From Escherichia coli (GTDB taxonomy: Bacteria; Pseudomonadota; Gammaproteobacteria; Enterobacterales; Enterobacteriaceae), in NCBI RefSeq assembly GCF_046105845.1, contig NZ_CP151004.1: DNA of 64,000 nucleotides, one strand, 5' to 3'. This document shows, in pieces, positions 22,594-32,011 of the stretch. Within the stretch, counting starts at the first letter, position 1, and every line of letters begins with the position of its first letter. The notes under the pieces are model-generated. The model was not told the DNA's origin, made no database searches, and worked only from the letters and a program-made list of their open reading frames with translations. The position numbers and the translations under genes were made by a program.

Positions 22594-25266
22594 CTACAGC
22601 AAGCTCTTGACATAACTGTCAATGTCGCTGATGTATTTTTCTATTCCTGAAACATCCTTCTCACGAATCAGATGTTCCAGCGTTTCACATAACTGCTTGC
22701 CGGGTACCAGATTTAGCATGGCAAATACGCCTTTAAGACGATGAGCCGTTTGGGCTAACGCAGCAAAGTCACTGGTTGCTGCTTCAGTATACAGCCTCTT
22801 AACATCATCCGGTACTGTGTCTACAAAGAGCGCATAATAGCCGCTGGCATGGAGTTGCGCATTTTCATCTCCGCCCAGAGGCGATTCTGTCACCTCTTCC
22901 TGCGCCAGTTGCACTTCAATTAATTGTAAGACCGCTTCCTGCATAGCGTTGCTCATATTGAAGTTGACGCACAATTGACCAGGCCCAATTTCCCGTACGC
23001 CAGACTCATCATCGCTTAAAAGCAAGCCAGAGGCAGTAAGATTAGACGGATTATCCGTTAAAAAGATATCATAATCTTGACTAATTAATCTTTCATCGGG
23101 TGTGATACAGGTTGCACCCCAATTTTCTAACTGGCGAGTGACAATATTCCGAATTTCTGCCGAAGTAACATCCACCATTACGCAGACATCATCCAGTAAT
23201 CGCTCTTCTTCCTCTTCAACTTCCGGGTCAGCTGCGAGCATTTTGATATGCACAGAGTAGCGTGTACCAAGCCCATCCCGCGTTTTGATGTTTAAATGAC
23301 CGCCCAGTTTACGCGCCAGTTGATCGCTCAGCCAGAATGCCAGCGGGTCCGCCTTGCCATAGCGATCGTTTTGGGTCTGGTTGATAAACGGGAAGTGCAA
23401 ATTATCCATTTCATGAATGCTTACGCCTTCTCCGGTGTCCAGAATGCGGAACGTCAGGCGGTCTTCGGAGGACTCATCCTGATCAACCTCAAGGGTGATT
23501 TTTCCCAATTGCGTTGAGGTCACGGCATATTGCATCAGTAACAGCAAAATACGTCGTAAGGCATCGCGATCGCCGCGGCGCATATCGTGTGCTTTCAGAT
23601 GATTGTTAATCAGCAGTTGCAGACCTTTACGCTTGATGGCAGGCAACACTGAAGGCACAACTTCATCAATCAAATCCTGCACGGAGAACAGCACCGTCTC
23701 ACTTTTCCAGCTATCGTCCGCAAGCATGTTCGCTAACTGTATTTCATCGACCAGCCGCACCAGCACATCAGCCTGATTCGCCAGTTGTTTGCTTTCCGGG
23801 GCGTTGAGTTTAGCCGCGCTCTCCGCCAGGGACTGTGCGGGTTCTTTCAGCGCATCGCCAATGTTTTTCATAAAGGTCATCCGCCCCTGCTGGTTTTTCT
23901 CATACAGACGCTGCGCCTGCTTGAGTTTCTTGTTTACCAGCACTTCGCGATCCTGATCGCGAATAATGAAAATTTGTGTGCGCGGCGCGACCTGGCTGCG
24001 GAACATGCGGATCTCATACAGCTCGTTATTGATCGTCGCCTGAATAATCCCCTGATGCTGTTCCGCCATGGTGGTGATGTTTTGCAGATTCAAATGCGGC
24101 AGCAAATGATCGGCAATTTTGTTACTTATGACAGTGCGGTTCGATTCCTGATCGTGAACCAGCAGGCCGAGCGGCAGCAGTGAGACTATCTCTTCATTGA
24201 TTGCCCGTAAAATGCGCAATTCGTTATTGACCGCCGAGCTGGGGACGTTTTCTGTACTGCGGCTGGAGAAATGGCGGAATGTGGTATAGCCAAATAACGC
24301 CAGCGCCAGCAAACCGATATTCAGCAGCAGTGGCAGCAGAATGTTTTGCAACGTATCCAGCAATAAGGTGCCATAAGGAACCTGCCAGACCAGGCGCATA
24401 TCGGTAGAGTTGAGTGCCGAGGAGATTTCAATCTTCGTACTGTTAAAGTGGATACTGACGCTATCCGTCCCTTCTTTCTCATTATCATTGTTTCCCGTTG
24501 CCGTCGCGTCTGGCTCAAGGCGGAAACTGTCCAGCGGCATACCCGGTGGGATCAAATCATTAATCGGCAGATCAAAAGCCACGACCGTTGCCAGATGTCC
24601 CGGCTGGTTGAACGTGGTACGCAAGGTAAAGTAATGACCGTTCTGCCAGGCCAGGCGGCGCATGTTAGAAAAGCTTTCGCGTTCATCGAGGGCGTTGGCC
24701 TGTTGCAACATCTCTGCACGACGTGAATCAACAATGTCGCTGACGGTCGATTCTTTAAATCCGGAGGTGAGATCTTTAAGGGGCAGGGTTGAGATCAGCA
24801 CCAGACTGTTATCCTGACCATTCAGGTAATACATCGACCACGGTACATTTTCTGCGCCCCACAATGTGTCCAGATAGGTGGACATCCGTTGAGTCATCTC
24901 AAGCGTTGAGTTGTCGTGAGAGCCAAAGATTAACGCTTCCGTTTTGCGGCGTGGTTTCTCCAGATAGTAGACATCCTGTTTCAGGCGCGTCTCTTGTAAA
25001 CCTTCGCCGGAGGAGGGGGAGGTCGTCGCGGCAATGTTGTCGTAGATCTGCCAGGTCACGTAACGCCAGGTATCGACGCGCTTTTGGATAGCGTGGGTAA
25101 TGTCGACAATCTGGTAACTTTTATCTTTCAGCCAGGCGTTAACGGCGCTTTGTACCATTACCCCCATCGTCACCAGTAACACAATGATCAACAGTAAAAA
25201 GAAGCGGGTAATGCTCCCCGGTAGGAGTGAAAAGCGGGTCGTGGCCGTTGTCTCTTTCTGACGCAT
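22594..25266 (-). CDS. rcsD: Phosphotransfer intermediate RcsD (YojN), 890 aa
   Basis: 890-aa ORF with N-terminal transmembrane segments and C-terminal HPt domain; immediately upstream of rcsB. Confidence 0.93.
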   Translation of the reverse strand: MRQKETTATTRFSLLPGSITRFFLLLIIVLLVTMGVMVQSAVNAWLKDKSYQIVDITHAIQKRVDTWRYVTWQIYDNIAATTSPSSGEGLQETRLKQDVYYLEKPRRKTEALIFGSHDNSTLEMTQRMSTYLDTLWGAENVPWSMYYLNGQDNSLVLISTLPLKDLTSGFKESTVSDIVDSRRAEMLQQANALDERESFSNMRRLAWQNGHYFTLRTTFNQPGHLATVVAFDLPINDLIPPGMPLDSFRLEPDATATGNNDNEKEGTDSVSIHFNSTKIEISSALNSTDMRLVWQVPYGTLLLDTLQNILLPLLLNIGLLALALFGYTTFRHFSSRSTENVPSSAVNNELRILRAINEEIVSLLPLGLLVHDQESNRTVISNKIADHLLPHLNLQNITTMAEQHQGIIQATINNELYEIRMFRSQVAPRTQIFIIRDQDREVLVNKKLKQAQRLYEKNQQGRMTFMKNIGDALKEPAQSLAESAAKLNAPESKQLANQADVLVRLVDEIQLANMLADDSWKSETVLFSVQDLIDEVVPSVLPAIKRKGLQLLINNHLKAHDMRRGDRDALRRILLLLMQYAVTSTQLGKITLEVDQDESSEDRLTFRILDTGEGVSIHEMDNLHFPFINQTQNDRYGKADPLAFWLSDQLARKLGGHLNIKTRDGLGTRYSVHIKMLAADPEVEEEEERLLDDVCVMVDVTSAEIRNIVTRQLENWGATCITPDERLISQDYDIFLTDNPSNLTASGLLLSDDESGVREIGPGQLCVNFNMSNAMQEAVLQLIEVQLAQEEVTESPLGGDENAQLHASGYYALFVDTVPDDVKRLYTEAATSDFAALAQTAHRLKGVFAMLNLVPGKQLCETLEHLIREKDVSGIEKYISDIDSYVKSLL

Positions 25267-25577
25267 TCGTGTTTATGACCTGTTAAAACTTCGCGAAGTG
25301 ATAGGGCAGTATAAAGGGTACAGTGTGAAATTCCAGACTCTTACCTGATTGATGATTTTCTATTCTCCCGTGATATTTATCATCCTGCATTGGGGGAAAT
25401 AGATGTACAAGCGCCATTTTGCTGTACAAATAACCTACAAAAAGCCCAACGAAATTAATTGCAAATAAACGAAGATTGCTGGAAATTATGCTGATGTTAA
25501 TTATTTGTGAAATAGTTAACAAGCGTTATAGTTTTTCTGTGGTAGCACAGAATAATGAAAAGTGTGTAAAGAAGGGT

Positions 25578-25670
25578 AAAAAAAACCGGATGCGAGGCAT
25601 CCGGTTGAAATAGGGGTAAACAGACATTCAGAAATGAATGACGGTAATAAATAAAGTTAATGATGATAGC
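25578..25670 (-). ncRNA. micF: MicF antisense sRNA (93 nt), divergent from ompC
   Basis: Minus strand reads GCTATCATCATTAACTTTATTTATTACCGTCATTCATTTCTGAATGTCTGTTTACCCCTATTTCAACCGGATGCCTCGCATCCGGTTTTTTTT, matching remembered micF including its terminator hairpin and U-tail. Confidence 0.9.
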
Positions 25671-25825
25671 GGGAGTTATTCTAGTTGCGAGTGAAGGTTT
25701 TGTTTTGACATTCAGTGCTGTCAAATACTTAAGAATAAGTTATTGATTTTAACCTTGAATTATTATTGCTTGATGTTAGGTGCTTATTTCGCCATTCCGC
25801 AATAATCTTAAAAAGTTCCCTTAAA

Positions 25826-25920
25826 TTTACATTTTGAAACATCTATAACGATAAATGAAACATCTTAAAAGTTTTAGTATCATATTCGTGTTGGATTATT
25901 CTGCATTTTTGGGGAGAATG
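25826..25920 (+). promoter_or_regulatory. ompC promoter with tandem OmpR boxes
   Basis: Three tandem ~20-bp boxes (tttacattttgaaacatcta, acgataaatgaaacatctta, aagttttagtatcatattcg), then -35 TTGGAT (25891-25896) and -10 GAGAAT (25915-25920). Confidence 0.8.
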
Positions 25921-25989
25921 GACTTGCCGACTGATTAATGAGGGTTAATCAGTATGCAGTGGCATAAAAAAGCAAATAAAGGCATATAA

Positions 25990-27132
<1,143 letters not shown>

Positions 27133-27150
27133 TCTCGATTGATATCGAAC

Positions 27151-27174
27151 AAAGGGCCTGCGGGCCCTTTTTTC
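27151..27174 (+). terminator. Rho-independent terminator of ompC
   Basis: aaagggcc-tgcg-ggcccttttttc hairpin plus T-run. Confidence 0.8.
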
Positions 27175-27243
27175 ATTGTTTTCAGCGTACAAACACAGTT
27201 TTTTGGTGTACTCTTGCGACCGTTCGCATGAGGATAATCACGT

Positions 27244-28299
27244 ATGGAAATAAGCTTTACCCGCGTGGCACTGCTGGCTGCCGCGCTCTTCTTTGTTGGT
27301 TGCGATCAAAAACCACAACCCGCCAAAACCCACGCTACTGAAGTTACCGTTCTTGAAGGCAAAACCATGGGTACCTTCTGGCGTGCCAGCATCCCGGGCA
27401 TTGACGCCAAACGCAGTGCCGAACTTAAAGAAAAGATTCAGACCCAACTGGACGCCGACGATCAGCTGCTTTCGACCTATAAAAAAGATTCCGCGCTGAT
27501 GCGCTTTAACGACTCGCAAAGTTTGTCGCCGTGGCCAGTAAGTGAAGCGATGGCCGATATCGTCACCACCTCGCTACGCATTGGCGCGAAGACCGATGGC
27601 GCGATGGATATAACCGTCGGGCCGCTGGTGAATCTGTGGGGCTTTGGCCCGGAACAACAGCCGGTTCAAATTCCGAGCCAGGAACAGATCGATGCGATGA
27701 AAGCCAAAACCGGCTTACAGCACCTGACGGTCATTAATCAGTCGCATCAGCAATATCTGCAAAAAGACCTGCCGGATTTATATGTCGATCTCTCTACCGT
27801 CGGTGAAGGTTATGCGGCGGATCACCTGGCTCGCTTGATGGAGCAGGAAGGGATTTCCCGCTATCTGGTATCGGTGGGAGGTGCGCTGGACAGCCGTGGT
27901 ATGAACGGTGAAGGCCAGCCGTGGCGGGTAGCGATTCAAAAACCAACCGATAAAGAAAACGCGGTTCAGGCTGTGGTGGATATCAACGGTCATGGCATTA
28001 GCACCTCTGGCAGCTACCGTAACTATTACGAACTGGACGGCAAACGCCTTTCCCATGTTATCGATCCGCAAACCGGGCGTCCCATCGAACACAATCTGGT
28101 ATCCGTGACGGTGATTGCCCCGACGGCGCTGGAAGCCGATGCCTGGGATACTGGCTTGATGGTGCTGGGGCCGGAGAAAGCCAAAGAGGTTGTTCGCCGG
28201 GAAGGGCTGGCGGTTTATATGATCACCAAAGAGGGCGATAATTTTAAAACCTGGATGTCGCCGCAGTTTAAAAGCTTCCTTATCAGCGAAAAAAATTAA
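27244..28299 (+). CDS. apbE: FAD:protein FMN transferase (ApbE/Ftp) lipoprotein, 351 aa
   Basis: Lipobox FVGC in the signal peptide; length and synteny match ApbE. Confidence 0.9.
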   Translation: MEISFTRVALLAAALFFVGCDQKPQPAKTHATEVTVLEGKTMGTFWRASIPGIDAKRSAELKEKIQTQLDADDQLLSTYKKDSALMRFNDSQSLSPWPVSEAMADIVTTSLRIGAKTDGAMDITVGPLVNLWGFGPEQQPVQIPSQEQIDAMKAKTGLQHLTVINQSHQQYLQKDLPDLYVDLSTVGEGYAADHLARLMEQEGISRYLVSVGGALDSRGMNGEGQPWRVAIQKPTDKENAVQAVVDINGHGISTSGSYRNYYELDGKRLSHVIDPQTGRPIEHNLVSVTVIAPTALEADAWDTGLMVLGPEKAKEVVRREGLAVYMITKEGDNFKTWMSPQFKSFLISEKN

Positions 28300-28305
28300 A
28301 GCGCA
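28293..28305 (+). promoter_or_regulatory. Ada box (AAANNAAAGCGCA) in the ada promoter
   Basis: aaattaaagcgca about 70 bp upstream of the ada ATG, overlapping the apbE stop codon. Confidence 0.65.
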
Positions 28306-28372
28306 AGATTGTTGGTTTTTGCGTGATGGTGACCGGGCAGACTAAAGGCTATCCTTAACCAGGGAGCTGATT

Positions 28373-29437
28373 ATGAAAAACGCCACATGCTTAACTGACG
28401 ATCAACGCTGGCAATCTGTCTTAGCCCGCGACCCGAATGCCGACGGCGAATTCGTTTTCGCCGTGCGCACCACAGGCATCTTTTGCCGTCCGTCTTGCCG
28501 CGCCAGACATGCCTTGCGGGAAAATGTCTCCTTCTACGCAAATGCCAGCGAGGCACTCACCGCCGGATTTCGCCCCTGCAAACGCTGCCAACCCGATAAA
28601 GCCAATGCCCAGCAACATCGGTTGGATAAAATCACCCACGCCTGCCGACTTCTGGAACAGGAAACGCCTGTAACGCTGGGAGCCTTAGCCGATCAGGTGG
28701 CGATGAGTCCGTTCCATCTGCATAGGTTGTTTAAAGCGACTACCGGAATGACGCCTAAAGCCTGGCAACAGGCCTGGCGCGCTCGCCGTTTGCGTGAATC
28801 GCTGGCGAAAGGGGAGAGCGTGACGAGGTCTATTCTTAACGCCGGATTCCCCGACAGCAGCAGTTACTACCGCAAAGCTGACGAAACGCTGGGCATGACG
28901 GCTAAACAATTTCGTCACGGTGGCGAAAATCTGGCGGTGCATTACGCGCTGGCTGATTGTGAGCTGGGCCGGTGCCTGGTGGCAGAAAGCGAGCGGGGGA
29001 TTTGCGCGATATTACTGGGCGATGATGACGGGACATTAATCAGCGAGTTGCAGCAGATGTTTCCCGCTGCCAACAACGCGCCTGCCGATTTGACGTTTCA
29101 ACAACATGTGCGTGAAGTGATCGCCAGCCTCAATCAACGCGATACGCCGCTGACGTTACCGCTGGACATTCGCGGCACTGCTTTTCAGCAACAAGTCTGG
29201 CAGGCACTGCGCACGATACCTTGCGGTGAAACCGTCAGTTATCAGCAACTGGCTAACGCCATCGGCAAACCGAAAGCGGTACGGGCCGTTGCCAGCGCCT
29301 GTGCCGCCAACAAGCTCGCTATCGTTATACCTTGTCATCGGGTGGTCCGTGGTGATGGAGCGCTTTCCGGTTACCGCTGGGGCGAGTCGCGTAAAGCGCA
29401 ACTGCTGCGCCGCGAAGCTGAGAATGAGGAGAGGTAA
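28373..29437 (+). CDS. ada: Ada bifunctional regulator / O6-methylguanine-DNA methyltransferase, 354 aa
   Basis: N-terminal Cys cluster (FCRPSCRARH), C-terminal PCHRV active site. Confidence 0.95.
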   Translation: MKNATCLTDDQRWQSVLARDPNADGEFVFAVRTTGIFCRPSCRARHALRENVSFYANASEALTAGFRPCKRCQPDKANAQQHRLDKITHACRLLEQETPVTLGALADQVAMSPFHLHRLFKATTGMTPKAWQQAWRARRLRESLAKGESVTRSILNAGFPDSSSYYRKADETLGMTAKQFRHGGENLAVHYALADCELGRCLVAESERGICAILLGDDDGTLISELQQMFPAANNAPADLTFQQHVREVIASLNQRDTPLTLPLDIRGTAFQQQVWQALRTIPCGETVSYQQLANAIGKPKAVRAVASACAANKLAIVIPCHRVVRGDGALSGYRWGESRKAQLLRREAENEER

Positions 29438-30087
29438 TGTTGGATCTGTTTGCCGATGCTGAACCGTGGCAAGAGCCACTGGCGGCTGGTGCGGTAATTT
29501 TACGGCGTTTTGCTTTTAACGCTGCGGAGCAACTGATCCGCGATATTAATGACGTTGCCAGCCAGTCGCCGTTTCGCCAGATGGTTACCCCCGGGGGATA
29601 TACCATGTCGGTGGCGATGACCAACTGTGGGCATCTGGGCTGGACGACCCATCGGCAAGGTTATCTCTATTCGCCCATTGATCCGCAAACAAATAAACCG
29701 TGGCCCGCCATGCCGCAGAGTTTTCATAATTTATGTCAACGTGCGGCTACGGCGGCGGGCTATCCAGATTTCCAGCCAGATGCTTGTCTTATCAACCGCT
29801 ACGCTCCTGGCGCGAAACTGTCGCTGCATCAGGATAAAGACGAACCGGATCTGCGCGCGCCGATTGTTTCTGTTTCTCTGGGCTTACCCGCGATTTTTCA
29901 ATTTGGCGGCCTGAAACGAAATGATCCGCTAAAACGTTTGTTGTTGGAACATGGCGATGTGGTGGTATGGGGCGGTGAATCGCGGCTGTTTTATCATGGC
30001 ATTCAACCGTTGAAAGCGGGGTTTCATCCACTCACCACCGACTGCCGCTACAACCTGACATTCCGTCAGGCAGGTAAAAAAGAATAA
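29437..30087 (+). CDS. alkB: Fe(II)/2-oxoglutarate-dependent DNA/RNA demethylase AlkB, 216 aa
   Basis: ATG overlaps the ada stop by 1 nt (TAATG); HxD motif LSLHQDKDE. Confidence 0.95.
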   Translation: MLDLFADAEPWQEPLAAGAVILRRFAFNAAEQLIRDINDVASQSPFRQMVTPGGYTMSVAMTNCGHLGWTTHRQGYLYSPIDPQTNKPWPAMPQSFHNLCQRAATAAGYPDFQPDACLINRYAPGAKLSLHQDKDEPDLRAPIVSVSLGLPAIFQFGGLKRNDPLKRLLLEHGDVVVWGGESRLFYHGIQPLKAGFHPLTTDCRYNLTFRQAGKKE

Positions 30088-30162
30088 AAATAAGAATTAT
30101 TATTGCTGTGCGCGCGAAGATGTTTAAACTGCGGGCTGTAATTCATTGTCCGGGTTTTCTGC

Positions 30163-31806
30163 ATGGAACTTCTTGTACTTGTCTGGCGGCAGTATCGCTG
30201 GCCATTTATCAGTGTGATGGCGCTAAGCCTCGCCAGTGCGGCATTAGGCATTGGCTTAATTGCTTTTATCAATCAGCGCCTTATCGAAACGGCGGATACC
30301 AGTCTGCTGGTGTTGCCGGAGTTTCTGGGATTATTGCTGCTGTTGATGGCAGTCACTCTCGGATCGCAACTGGCGCTCACCACTTTAGGACATCACTTCG
30401 TTTACCGACTGCGTAGTGAATTTATCAAGCGAATTCTCGATACCCACGTCGAGCGCATTGAACAACTTGGTAGCGCCTCGTTGTTGGCGGGGTTAACCAG
30501 CGATGTGCGCAATATCACCATTGCTTTTGTGCGTCTGCCGGAACTGGTGCAGGGGATCATCCTCACTATCGGTTCCGCGGCGTACTTGTGGATGCTGTCG
30601 GGCAAAATGTTGCTGGTAACGGCTATCTGGATGGCAGTCACCATCTGGGGCGGTTTTGTGCTGGTGGCGCGGGTTTACAAACATATGGCGACCCTGCGTG
30701 AAACCGAAGACAAGCTGTACACGGATTTTCAAACCGTACTCGAAGGGCGCAAAGAGCTGACTCTGAACCGTGAACGCGCCGAGTATGTGTTTAACAACCT
30801 CTACATTCCTGATGCGCAAGAGTATCGCCATCATATTATCCGCGCAGACACCTTCCATCTTAGTGCCGTGAACTGGTCAAACATCATGATGCTGGGCGCT
30901 ATCGGCCTGGTGTTCTGGATGGCGAACAGTCTCGGTTGGGCTGATACCAACGTTGCCGCGACCTATTCGTTGACGCTGTTATTCCTGCGTACGCCGCTGC
31001 TTTCGGCGGTTGGCGCATTACCGACGCTGCTGACGGCGCAGGTGGCGTTTAACAAGCTGAACAAATTCGCGCTCGCGCCTTTCAAAGCAGAGTTTCCGCG
31101 CCCGCAGGCGTTTCCCAACTGGCAAACGCTGGAGCTGCGTAACGTGACGTTTGCTTATCAGGATAACGCGTTTTCCGTTGGTCCGATTAATCTCACCATC
31201 AAACGTGGCGAGCTGCTGTTTCTGATTGGTGGCAACGGTAGTGGAAAATCGACGCTGGCGATGTTGCTGACGGGCTTGTATCAGCCACAAAGCGGCGAAA
31301 TCTTGCTGGATGACAACCCTGTCAGCGGCGAACAACCGGAAGATTATCGCAAACTGTTTTCGGCAGTGTTTACCGATGTCTGGCTGTTTGATCAACTGCT
31401 GGGGCCGGAGGGGCAACCCGCTAACCCGCAACTGGTTGAGAAGTGGCTGGCGCAGCTGAAAATGGCTCATAAGCTTGAGTTAAGTAACGGGCGTATTGTT
31501 AACCTGAAGTTATCGAAAGGGCAGAAAAAACGCGTGGCGCTGTTGCTGGCGCTGGCAGAAGAACGCGATATTATCCTGCTGGATGAATGGGCGGCGGATC
31601 AGGATCCACACTTCCGTCGTGAGTTTTATCAGGTGTTGCTGCCGCTGATGCAGGAGATGGGTAAAACTATTTTCGCCATCAGTCATGATGATCATTACTT
31701 TATCCACGCCGACCGCCTGCTGGAAATGCGCAACGGGCAACTTAGCGAGCTGACAGGCGAAGAGCGCGATGCTGCTTCGCGTGATGCCGTTGCCCGGACG
31801 GCATAA
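30163..31806 (+). CDS. yojI: ABC-type exporter YojI (fused permease/ATPase), 547 aa
   Basis: N-terminal TM domain, Walker [10 protein letters not shown] and ABC signature LSKGQKKR. Confidence 0.9.
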
Positions 31807-31818
31807 TATTACGACGCT

Positions 31819-31845
31819 GACCTGGCGGACTGCTGTCGCCAGGTC
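31819..31845 (+). terminator. Stem-loop downstream of yojI (possible terminator; no clear U-tract)
   Basis: gacctggcgg-actgctgt-cgccaggtc perfect 9-bp stem. Confidence 0.4.
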
Positions 31846-32011
31846 AATATGCTAAAAATCCCTTCATTTCTAATAACCCTATAATTAATCAACGAAACTA
31901 TAATGTTTCTAAAATTAGAATATAATTTATAAACATTATTTAAATGTTGTTACTTAAGTGTTACCGTTGATGCCGCGCAAATCTCACCTGCAATAAAGCG
32001 ACTAAAAGTAA

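Follow-up and report, generated by a model that had tools for sequence, protein, structure and literature searches.

The operator of the ada-alkB operon does not lie wholly between genes: in the Escherichia coli DNA analysed here (a stretch of 64 kb, hereafter the window), its upstream half is written into the end of the preceding gene, apbE, and this arrangement recurs in all 11 enteric loci recovered by an independent scan. We regard it as highly probable that the apbE-ada junction carries the autoregulatory operator of ada-alkB, that its promoter is activated in the class I manner, and that transcription reading through from apbE passes over the operator. Under this reading, methylated Ada would bind the core AAT-N6-GCAA at 28294-28306, centred some 62 bp ahead of the transcription start (28362), and would act as a class I activator, bringing RNA polymerase to a promoter whose -10 element, TATCCT, is usable but whose -35 is poor. 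The bases at the end of apbE would then double as coding sequence and operator, with the codon for Asn351 serving as the A box and the stop codon falling in the spacer. With just 73 bp between apbE and ada, the upstream half of the operator comes to lie inside apbE; polymerases from apbE would run over it because no terminator follows the gene, and those leaving apbE probably enter ada at a low level.

The junction belongs to a run of five genes, ompC, apbE, ada, alkB and yojI, which the ORF list of the window places on the + strand at 26005-31806. All five products score above the cut-offs of curated NCBIfam models, of equivalog rank for ApbE, Ada, AlkB and YojI and of subfamily rank for OmpC. 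The 351-aa ORF of apbE (ftp; 27244-28299, +) encodes an FAD:protein FMN transferase lipoprotein (NCBIfam equivalog NF007774, 725 bits), matches PDB 2o18/4xgv with E = 2e-220 and ends in Ser-Glu-Lys-Asn-TAA; its K-12 counterpart is annotated as ftp/b2214. After the 73-bp gap, which is annotated at the same length in K-12 (ftp/apbE-ada), come ada (28373-29437, +; NCBIfam equivalog NF011964, 742 bits) and the second gene of the operon, alkB (29437-30087, +; ORF list, NCBIfam and K-12 annotation). The encoded Ada retains all seven residues checked, namely the methyl-acceptor Cys38, the zinc ligands Cys42, Cys69 and Cys72, the DNA-contact residues Arg45 and Arg71, and Cys321 (the roles of R45, R71 and C38 being those given in the review PMC4437013). 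The ATG of alkB shares one base with the TAA of ada (TAATG, 29435-29439), as it does in K-12, and this one-base overlap suggests translational coupling within the operon. On the other side of the run, the small RNA MicF (25578-25671, -; Rfam RF00033, 116.8 bits), a known feature, is divergent from ompC as in K-12; it was the only hit in an Rfam scan of 24000-32000, which gave no match at the apbE-ada junction.

The junction itself was found in 5421 of 5426 complete E. coli genomes. As a side observation, the particular version in the window is a rare one: across 401 bp (28100-28500) at least 99% identity was reached in only four of the 5421, most falling between 95 and 99%, and OmpC (26005-27132) has 375 aa against the 1104-nt gene (367 aa) of K-12. 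From the OmpC length and the rare junction identity, the window therefore represents either a less commonly sequenced E. coli lineage or a mosaic at the apbE-ada locus.

Within this junction the classical 13-mer Ada box AAATTAAAGCGCA (consensus AAANNAAAGCGCA) has its sole exact match in the window, on the + strand. The earlier note had proposed that an Ada box overlaps the stop codon of apbE, and this proved exact to the base: aaattaaagcgca occupies 28293-28305, 66 nt upstream of the ATG of ada, and the TAA at 28297-28299 falls inside it. Structural work reviewed in PMC4437013 (see also PMC6505713) defines two elements in the unit recognised by Ada, AAT (the A box) and GCAA (the B box), set 6 nt apart, a definition that AATTAAAGCGCAA at 28294-28306 fits. 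Here the A box (28294-28296, +; -68 to -66 from the start site) coincides with the codon for Asn351, the final sense codon of apbE, the apbE stop (28297-28299, +; -65 to -63) supplies the first three bases of the 6-nt spacer, and the B box (28303-28306, +; -59 to -56) is wholly intergenic. Six of the 13 bases of AAT-N6-GCAA thus belong to the apbE coding sequence, stop codon included, which bears out the accompanying claim that the adaptive-response promoter begins inside the upstream gene.

Could this be a chance resemblance, with the functional Ada operator lying elsewhere? The motif counts by themselves would allow it. The classical consensus has one match in the 64-kb window against 0.11 expected, and at least one match arose in 10 of 100 shuffled sequences, so that the count of the 13-mer alone is weak statistical support; the revised consensus AATNNNNNNGCAA (AAT-N6-GCAA) is even under-represented, with five matches against 15.4 expected, and is equally frequent upstream of non-responsive genes according to the survey in PMC6505713. 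It is too short to have discriminating power by itself. The support for the Ada box is instead its position and its sequence identity. The single 13-mer match in 64 kb stands at a class I distance from the mapped start of ada; it is base-for-base the same in K-12 MG1655, whose promoter is the one treated in the Ada literature, and in four divergent E. coli strains; and, of 5421 E. coli genomes, 5025 match a 30-nt core around it at 99% identity or more, the other 396 differing by one base. Moreover, the seven bases of the A and B boxes are invariant over seven genera amid variable flanks, and the motif recurs ahead of non-enteric ada genes far above background, as set out below. Chance resemblance is thereby effectively refuted: this is both the sole candidate site in the window and the conserved one, and the different upstream operator that would have spoken against the earlier note did not appear. 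The element shows every testable defining feature of the known Ada operator of the ada-alkB promoter, and by identity with K-12 we predict that methylated Ada binds it in this strain as well; for the identical K-12 sequence, both the binding of methylated Ada and its need for induction by alkylation are known (literature summarised in PMC4437013).

The geometry of the promoter is in keeping with this assignment. A genome-wide K-12 data set, obtained without alkylating agent, is the one source for the start of ada, which it places at 2308438 with 29 reads, a 5' UTR of 11 nt and the flank ...GGCTATCCTTAACCAG (Kim et al. 2012, PMC3415461, Table S1); transferred by sequence identity, this is the G at 28362 (+) in the window, giving the same 11-nt leader. 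Relative to it the Ada box spans -68 to -56 and is centred at about 28300, or about -62, which is a class I activator position. The -10 hexamer TATCCT (28350-28355, +; -12 to -7) lies at the correct distance from the published start, and the pattern TAnnCT is conserved there in all genera (TATCCT, TATGCT, TACACT, TAAGCT). Another candidate arrangement, which paired a -10 at TAAAGG (28343-28348) with a -35 at TTGCGT and would start transcription near 28355, was rejected, TAAAGG not being conserved between genera; TATCCT with the start at 28362 was preferred because of the published start site and the conserved TAnnCT. Seventeen bp upstream of the -10, the -35 region TGGTGA (28327-28332, +; -35 to -30) is weak and variable between genera, as expected for an activator-dependent promoter. 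The Shine-Dalgarno sequence GGGAG of ada (28362-28366, +) sits at the extreme 5' end of the transcript from the ada promoter (P_ada), and its GGAG is invariant across genera. Data on the ada promoter were also looked for in two sigma-S papers, and none were found.

Between the B box and the -10, the cross-genus alignment picks out two further blocks: a conserved T-tract, GGTTTTTG (28314-28321, +; -48 to -41), and a near-invariant GGGCA in the promoter spacer (28335-28339, +; -27 to -23), which reads GGACA in Salmonella. Both are kept across the seven enteric genera, whereas the -35 between them is not. Activation by Ada at ada requires the C-terminal domain of the RNA polymerase alpha subunit (review PMC4437013), and the T-tract is a plausible candidate for its docking site. 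A reporter covering -100 to -1 from the ATG in K-12, and so including the last 27 nt of apbE, was strongly induced by MMS and MNNG on a plasmid (PMC3788762).

Salmonella departs from the common spacing in an informative way. Six genera have 42-43 nt between the B box and the -10, whereas Salmonella has 53 nt (the E. coli SCPM row is left out of this measure, the pattern having picked TAACCT in place of TATCCT). The box is accordingly centred near -61 or -62 in the six and at about -72, one helical turn further, in Salmonella. A shift of one turn fits the face-of-helix dependence of a class I activator. The two Salmonella loci (subsp. diarizonae and arizonae) carry an insertion of 10-11 bp between the B box and the -10, in the stretch corresponding to 28307-28349 of the window; this insertion may be tied to the weak adaptive response, of lower activity, reported for Salmonella (PMC3788762).

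The overlap also recurs across genera. A degenerate pattern for the coding sequence of the Ada N-terminus, independent of both the box and apbE, was run against a single genome of each species and gave 120 hits, among them 11 enteric loci: Escherichia coli (two), E. albertii, Leclercia, Pseudocitrobacter (two), Salmonella (two), Phytobacter, Pseudenterobacter and Kosakonia. In all 11, apbE is directly upstream of ada and ends in AAT plus a stop, and AAT-N6-GCAA is intact. The cross-genus comparison drew on 12 sequences from seven enteric genera, throughout which (12/12) the A box is AAT and the B box is GCAA at a fixed distance after the apbE stop; the stop never shifts, and 11 sequences have TAA there, Phytobacter alone having TAG. 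The neighbouring positions are much freer: the A/B spacer reads TAAAGC, TAAAAA, TAAAAC, TAGACA or TAAACC, the bases equivalent to 28300-28302 are accordingly AGC, AAA, AAC, ACA or ACC, and the two residues ahead of the terminal Asn vary among EK, GA, GK, DK and GR. The gap between apbE and ada is 69-73 nt across the seven genera, except for 80 in Salmonella, and Klebsiella is likewise listed with apbE-ada synteny (PMC3415461).

These comparisons call for one refinement of the earlier note. The identification of the box as the Ada operator, the same as in K-12, stands; however, in the 12 enteric sequences the classical AAAGCGCA is confined to Escherichia, and it is AAT-N6-GCAA at 28294-28306, rather than that longer motif, that is in these alignments the recognition unit conserved across genera.

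The coding side of the overlap bears the mark of the same unit. In a codon test over nine species, 15 of 193 degenerate codons whose amino acid is invariant were also invariant as codons (7.8%), and the terminal Asn codon of apbE was AAT in all nine. Of the seven Asn columns that are invariant in the protein, the terminal one alone is fixed as AAT; both AAC and AAT occur in each of the six internal columns. As the fold that ApbE has in common with the solved Vibrio and Pseudomonas homologues stops at residues 342-346, the tail beyond it is not constrained at the protein level. A single codon offers modest statistical support (about 0.08-0.12), in line with which GCAA too stays invariant while its neighbours vary. 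Together, these patterns indicate that the Ada operator constrains the last codon of apbE to AAT across enteric genera.

The motif is not confined to the enterics: of 105 loci outside them, 17 carry AAT-N6-GCAA ahead of their ada homologue, where the background rate for a comparable stretch is 0.005. This suggests that the A/B box operator is conserved well outside the enteric group. The loci that carry it include eight from Caballeronia, Burkholderia and Paraburkholderia, three from Inquilinus, two from Kaistia and one from Paracoccus, among others. Their spacers are lineage-specific, an example being AATGACAGCGCAA in the Caballeronia group. As for the box overlapping an upstream gene in these loci, their genomes have 60-72% GC, and at that composition raw ORF lists fill all frames with long spurious ORFs.

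We now turn to transcription across the junction. Between the apbE stop and the ATG of ada (28300-28372) there is no terminator-like hairpin, the nearest lying within apbE (28194-28213) and within alkB. RNA from 28250-28400 folds no better than its shuffled versions (z = +0.61). In the 73-nt gap G outnumbers C by 23 to 13, and the C/G ratio is 0.54-0.6 in 78-nt windows; with no C-rich, G-poor stretch for Rho to load on, the gap would be a poor loading site. A K-12 tiling-array transcript on the apbE strand, classed as 'similarly expressed' in an MNNG study (2308447-2309581; PMC6505713 supplement), corresponds to 27219-28353 of the window: it crosses the box, extends 54 nt beyond the apbE stop and ends 9 nt short of the ada start. 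Intergenic probe resolution in that array is 7-14 nt, and the apbE signal, at log2 10.3 against a threshold of 9.0, is just above background (PMC6505713). The missing terminator, the unstable fold of the junction, the G-rich gap and the array transcript show that apbE transcription crosses the Ada operator, as the earlier note had expected of read-through. The 3' boundary of the array transcript may reflect no more than the onset of the MNNG-induced ada segment, in which case it is silent on continuation into ada. Neither the SMRT-Cappable-seq supplement nor the 3'-end tables of Adams 2021 have an entry for apbE, ada or alkB. Basal Ada, tagged at its native locus, amounts to about one molecule per cell (PMC8643705), and any read-through into ada must therefore be rare or poorly translated.

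Some further observations concern the transcription units on either side. A terminator-like site was looked for on the + strand of the alkB-yojI gap (30088-30162) and none was found; in the tiling-array paper a single MNNG-induced transcript covers ada, alkB and yojI (PMC6505713). The same-strand run from apbE to yojI thus seems to be free of intrinsic terminators once past that of ompC (27151-27170). Within the 3' end of apbE and facing the Ada box and ada lies a sigma-70-like match, TTTATA-17 nt-GATAAT (28214-28242, +), whose GATAAT is GATAGC in K-12; it may be a chance match (three such sites against 2.4 expected), and, if active, it would send transcripts through the Ada operator. Three starts assigned to apbE by Kim et al. 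2012 (PMC3415461) map 263-273 nt upstream of its ATG, at about 26971-26981 of the window, that is, inside ompC and upstream of the ompC terminator. Internal promoters could account for them, as could processing of the abundant ompC mRNA. By the tiling array, in contrast, the apbE transcript begins some 25 nt ahead of its ATG (27219).

What the traffic over the operator does, if anything, can be read in two further ways. It might have no transcriptional consequence at all, apbE transcripts being stopped ahead of ada by Rho, RNase processing or a roadblock. The array transcript does stop short of the ada start, at 28353, the basal level of Ada is extremely low, and the C-rich 5' coding region of ada (C/G 1.3-1.5) could let Rho act on untranslated read-through RNA. 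We nonetheless hold such insulation to be doubtful, for the junction has neither a hairpin with a U-tract nor any stable structure, and its G-rich gap leads into a good Shine-Dalgarno sequence and an ATG, through which translation would be coupled and Rho kept off. The array boundary, for its part, falls where a differentially expressed segment starts, lies within probe resolution of the ada start and is likely a segmentation effect; the supplement of one 3'-end mapping study (Adams 2021) lists no 3' end for apbE, ada or alkB.

Conversely, the overlap might be functional: read-through from the apbE promoter could supply part or all of the rare basal ada transcripts that seed positive feedback, or passing polymerases could interfere with P_ada and keep it quiet, and in either case apbE expression would tune the speed of switching on. 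The lack of an intrinsic terminator, the poor Rho-loading character of the gap and an apbE-strand signal that reaches within 9 nt of the ada start would all permit this. So would the adjacency of apbE and ada at a near-constant gap across the seven genera (with Klebsiella sharing the synteny), but inherited synteny accounts equally well for it. Models of the noise in Ada induction place a constant basal rate at P_ada and never consider upstream transcription (10.1101/551911), which leaves room for such a role. Yet the P_ada start was seen, with 29 reads, in the absence of alkylating agent, so that the promoter fires basally by itself; the basal level at the native locus is merely about one molecule per cell; the apbE array signal is barely over background; and a 100-bp fragment taken out of its native context is fully inducible. 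Hence, we consider a functional overlap unlikely. The more specific form of the idea fares worse still: that apbE read-through, and not leakiness of P_ada alone, makes a meaningful share of the approximately one molecule of basal Ada per cell, and so lets apbE expression influence cell-to-cell variation in alkylation mutagenesis, because basal Ada sets the random delay before the adaptive response, strikes us as improbable. The reading that we favour remains an autoregulatory class I operator that shares its upstream half with apbE and is traversed by apbE transcription.

As a type, the favoured arrangement has several precedents. In compact bacterial genomes, promoters and operators are commonly found within the 3' end of an upstream gene on the same strand, and the present case resembles them in that regulatory DNA shares coding bases and upstream transcription passes through; it differs in that just 6 nt are shared and in that the dual constraint is visible as a fixed AAT codon on a variable tail. 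Among class I activators, an example is CRP, which binds at about -61.5 at lac. The Ada box, centred at about -61/-62 and likewise dependent on the C-terminal domain of RNA polymerase alpha, is comparable in position, but Ada is a monomeric suicide methyltransferase activated by self-methylation, whereas CRP is a ligand-bound dimer. The Ada sites of aidB and alkA share the AAT-N6-GCAA core bound by the N-terminal domain of methylated Ada, though they stand at other distances from their start sites and alkA has a different mode of activation (PMC4437013). Both lie outside the window, and, to the extent checked, neither shares bases with the stop codon of a preceding gene. The closest counterpart is the K-12 ada-alkB promoter itself, with the same 73-bp gap, inferred start, -10, Shine-Dalgarno sequence and downstream ada-alkB operon. 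From the tail of apbE through the -10 the two are identical except at one position, -22 in the promoter spacer, where the window has a (as do four of five E. coli compared) and K-12 has c; the last 20 codons of apbE differ by a few synonymous or conservative changes that leave the operator untouched.

The Ada box of the ada promoter is already known as a classic bacterial operator, and that it overlaps the apbE stop can be read off public annotation, although our literature search found no paper that remarks on it. The overlap is an ordinary consequence of tight packing across a 73-bp gap. Stochastic models of Ada induction credit basal expression wholly to P_ada (10.1101/551911), while the native locus has an unterminated gene upstream, even if it is improbable that apbE read-through matters much for basal Ada. 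What the comparison adds is twofold: the conserved recognition unit is cleanly resolved as AAT-N6-GCAA rather than AAAGCGCA, and the terminal AAT of apbE offers a tidy example of a codon apparently fixed by an overlapping operator.
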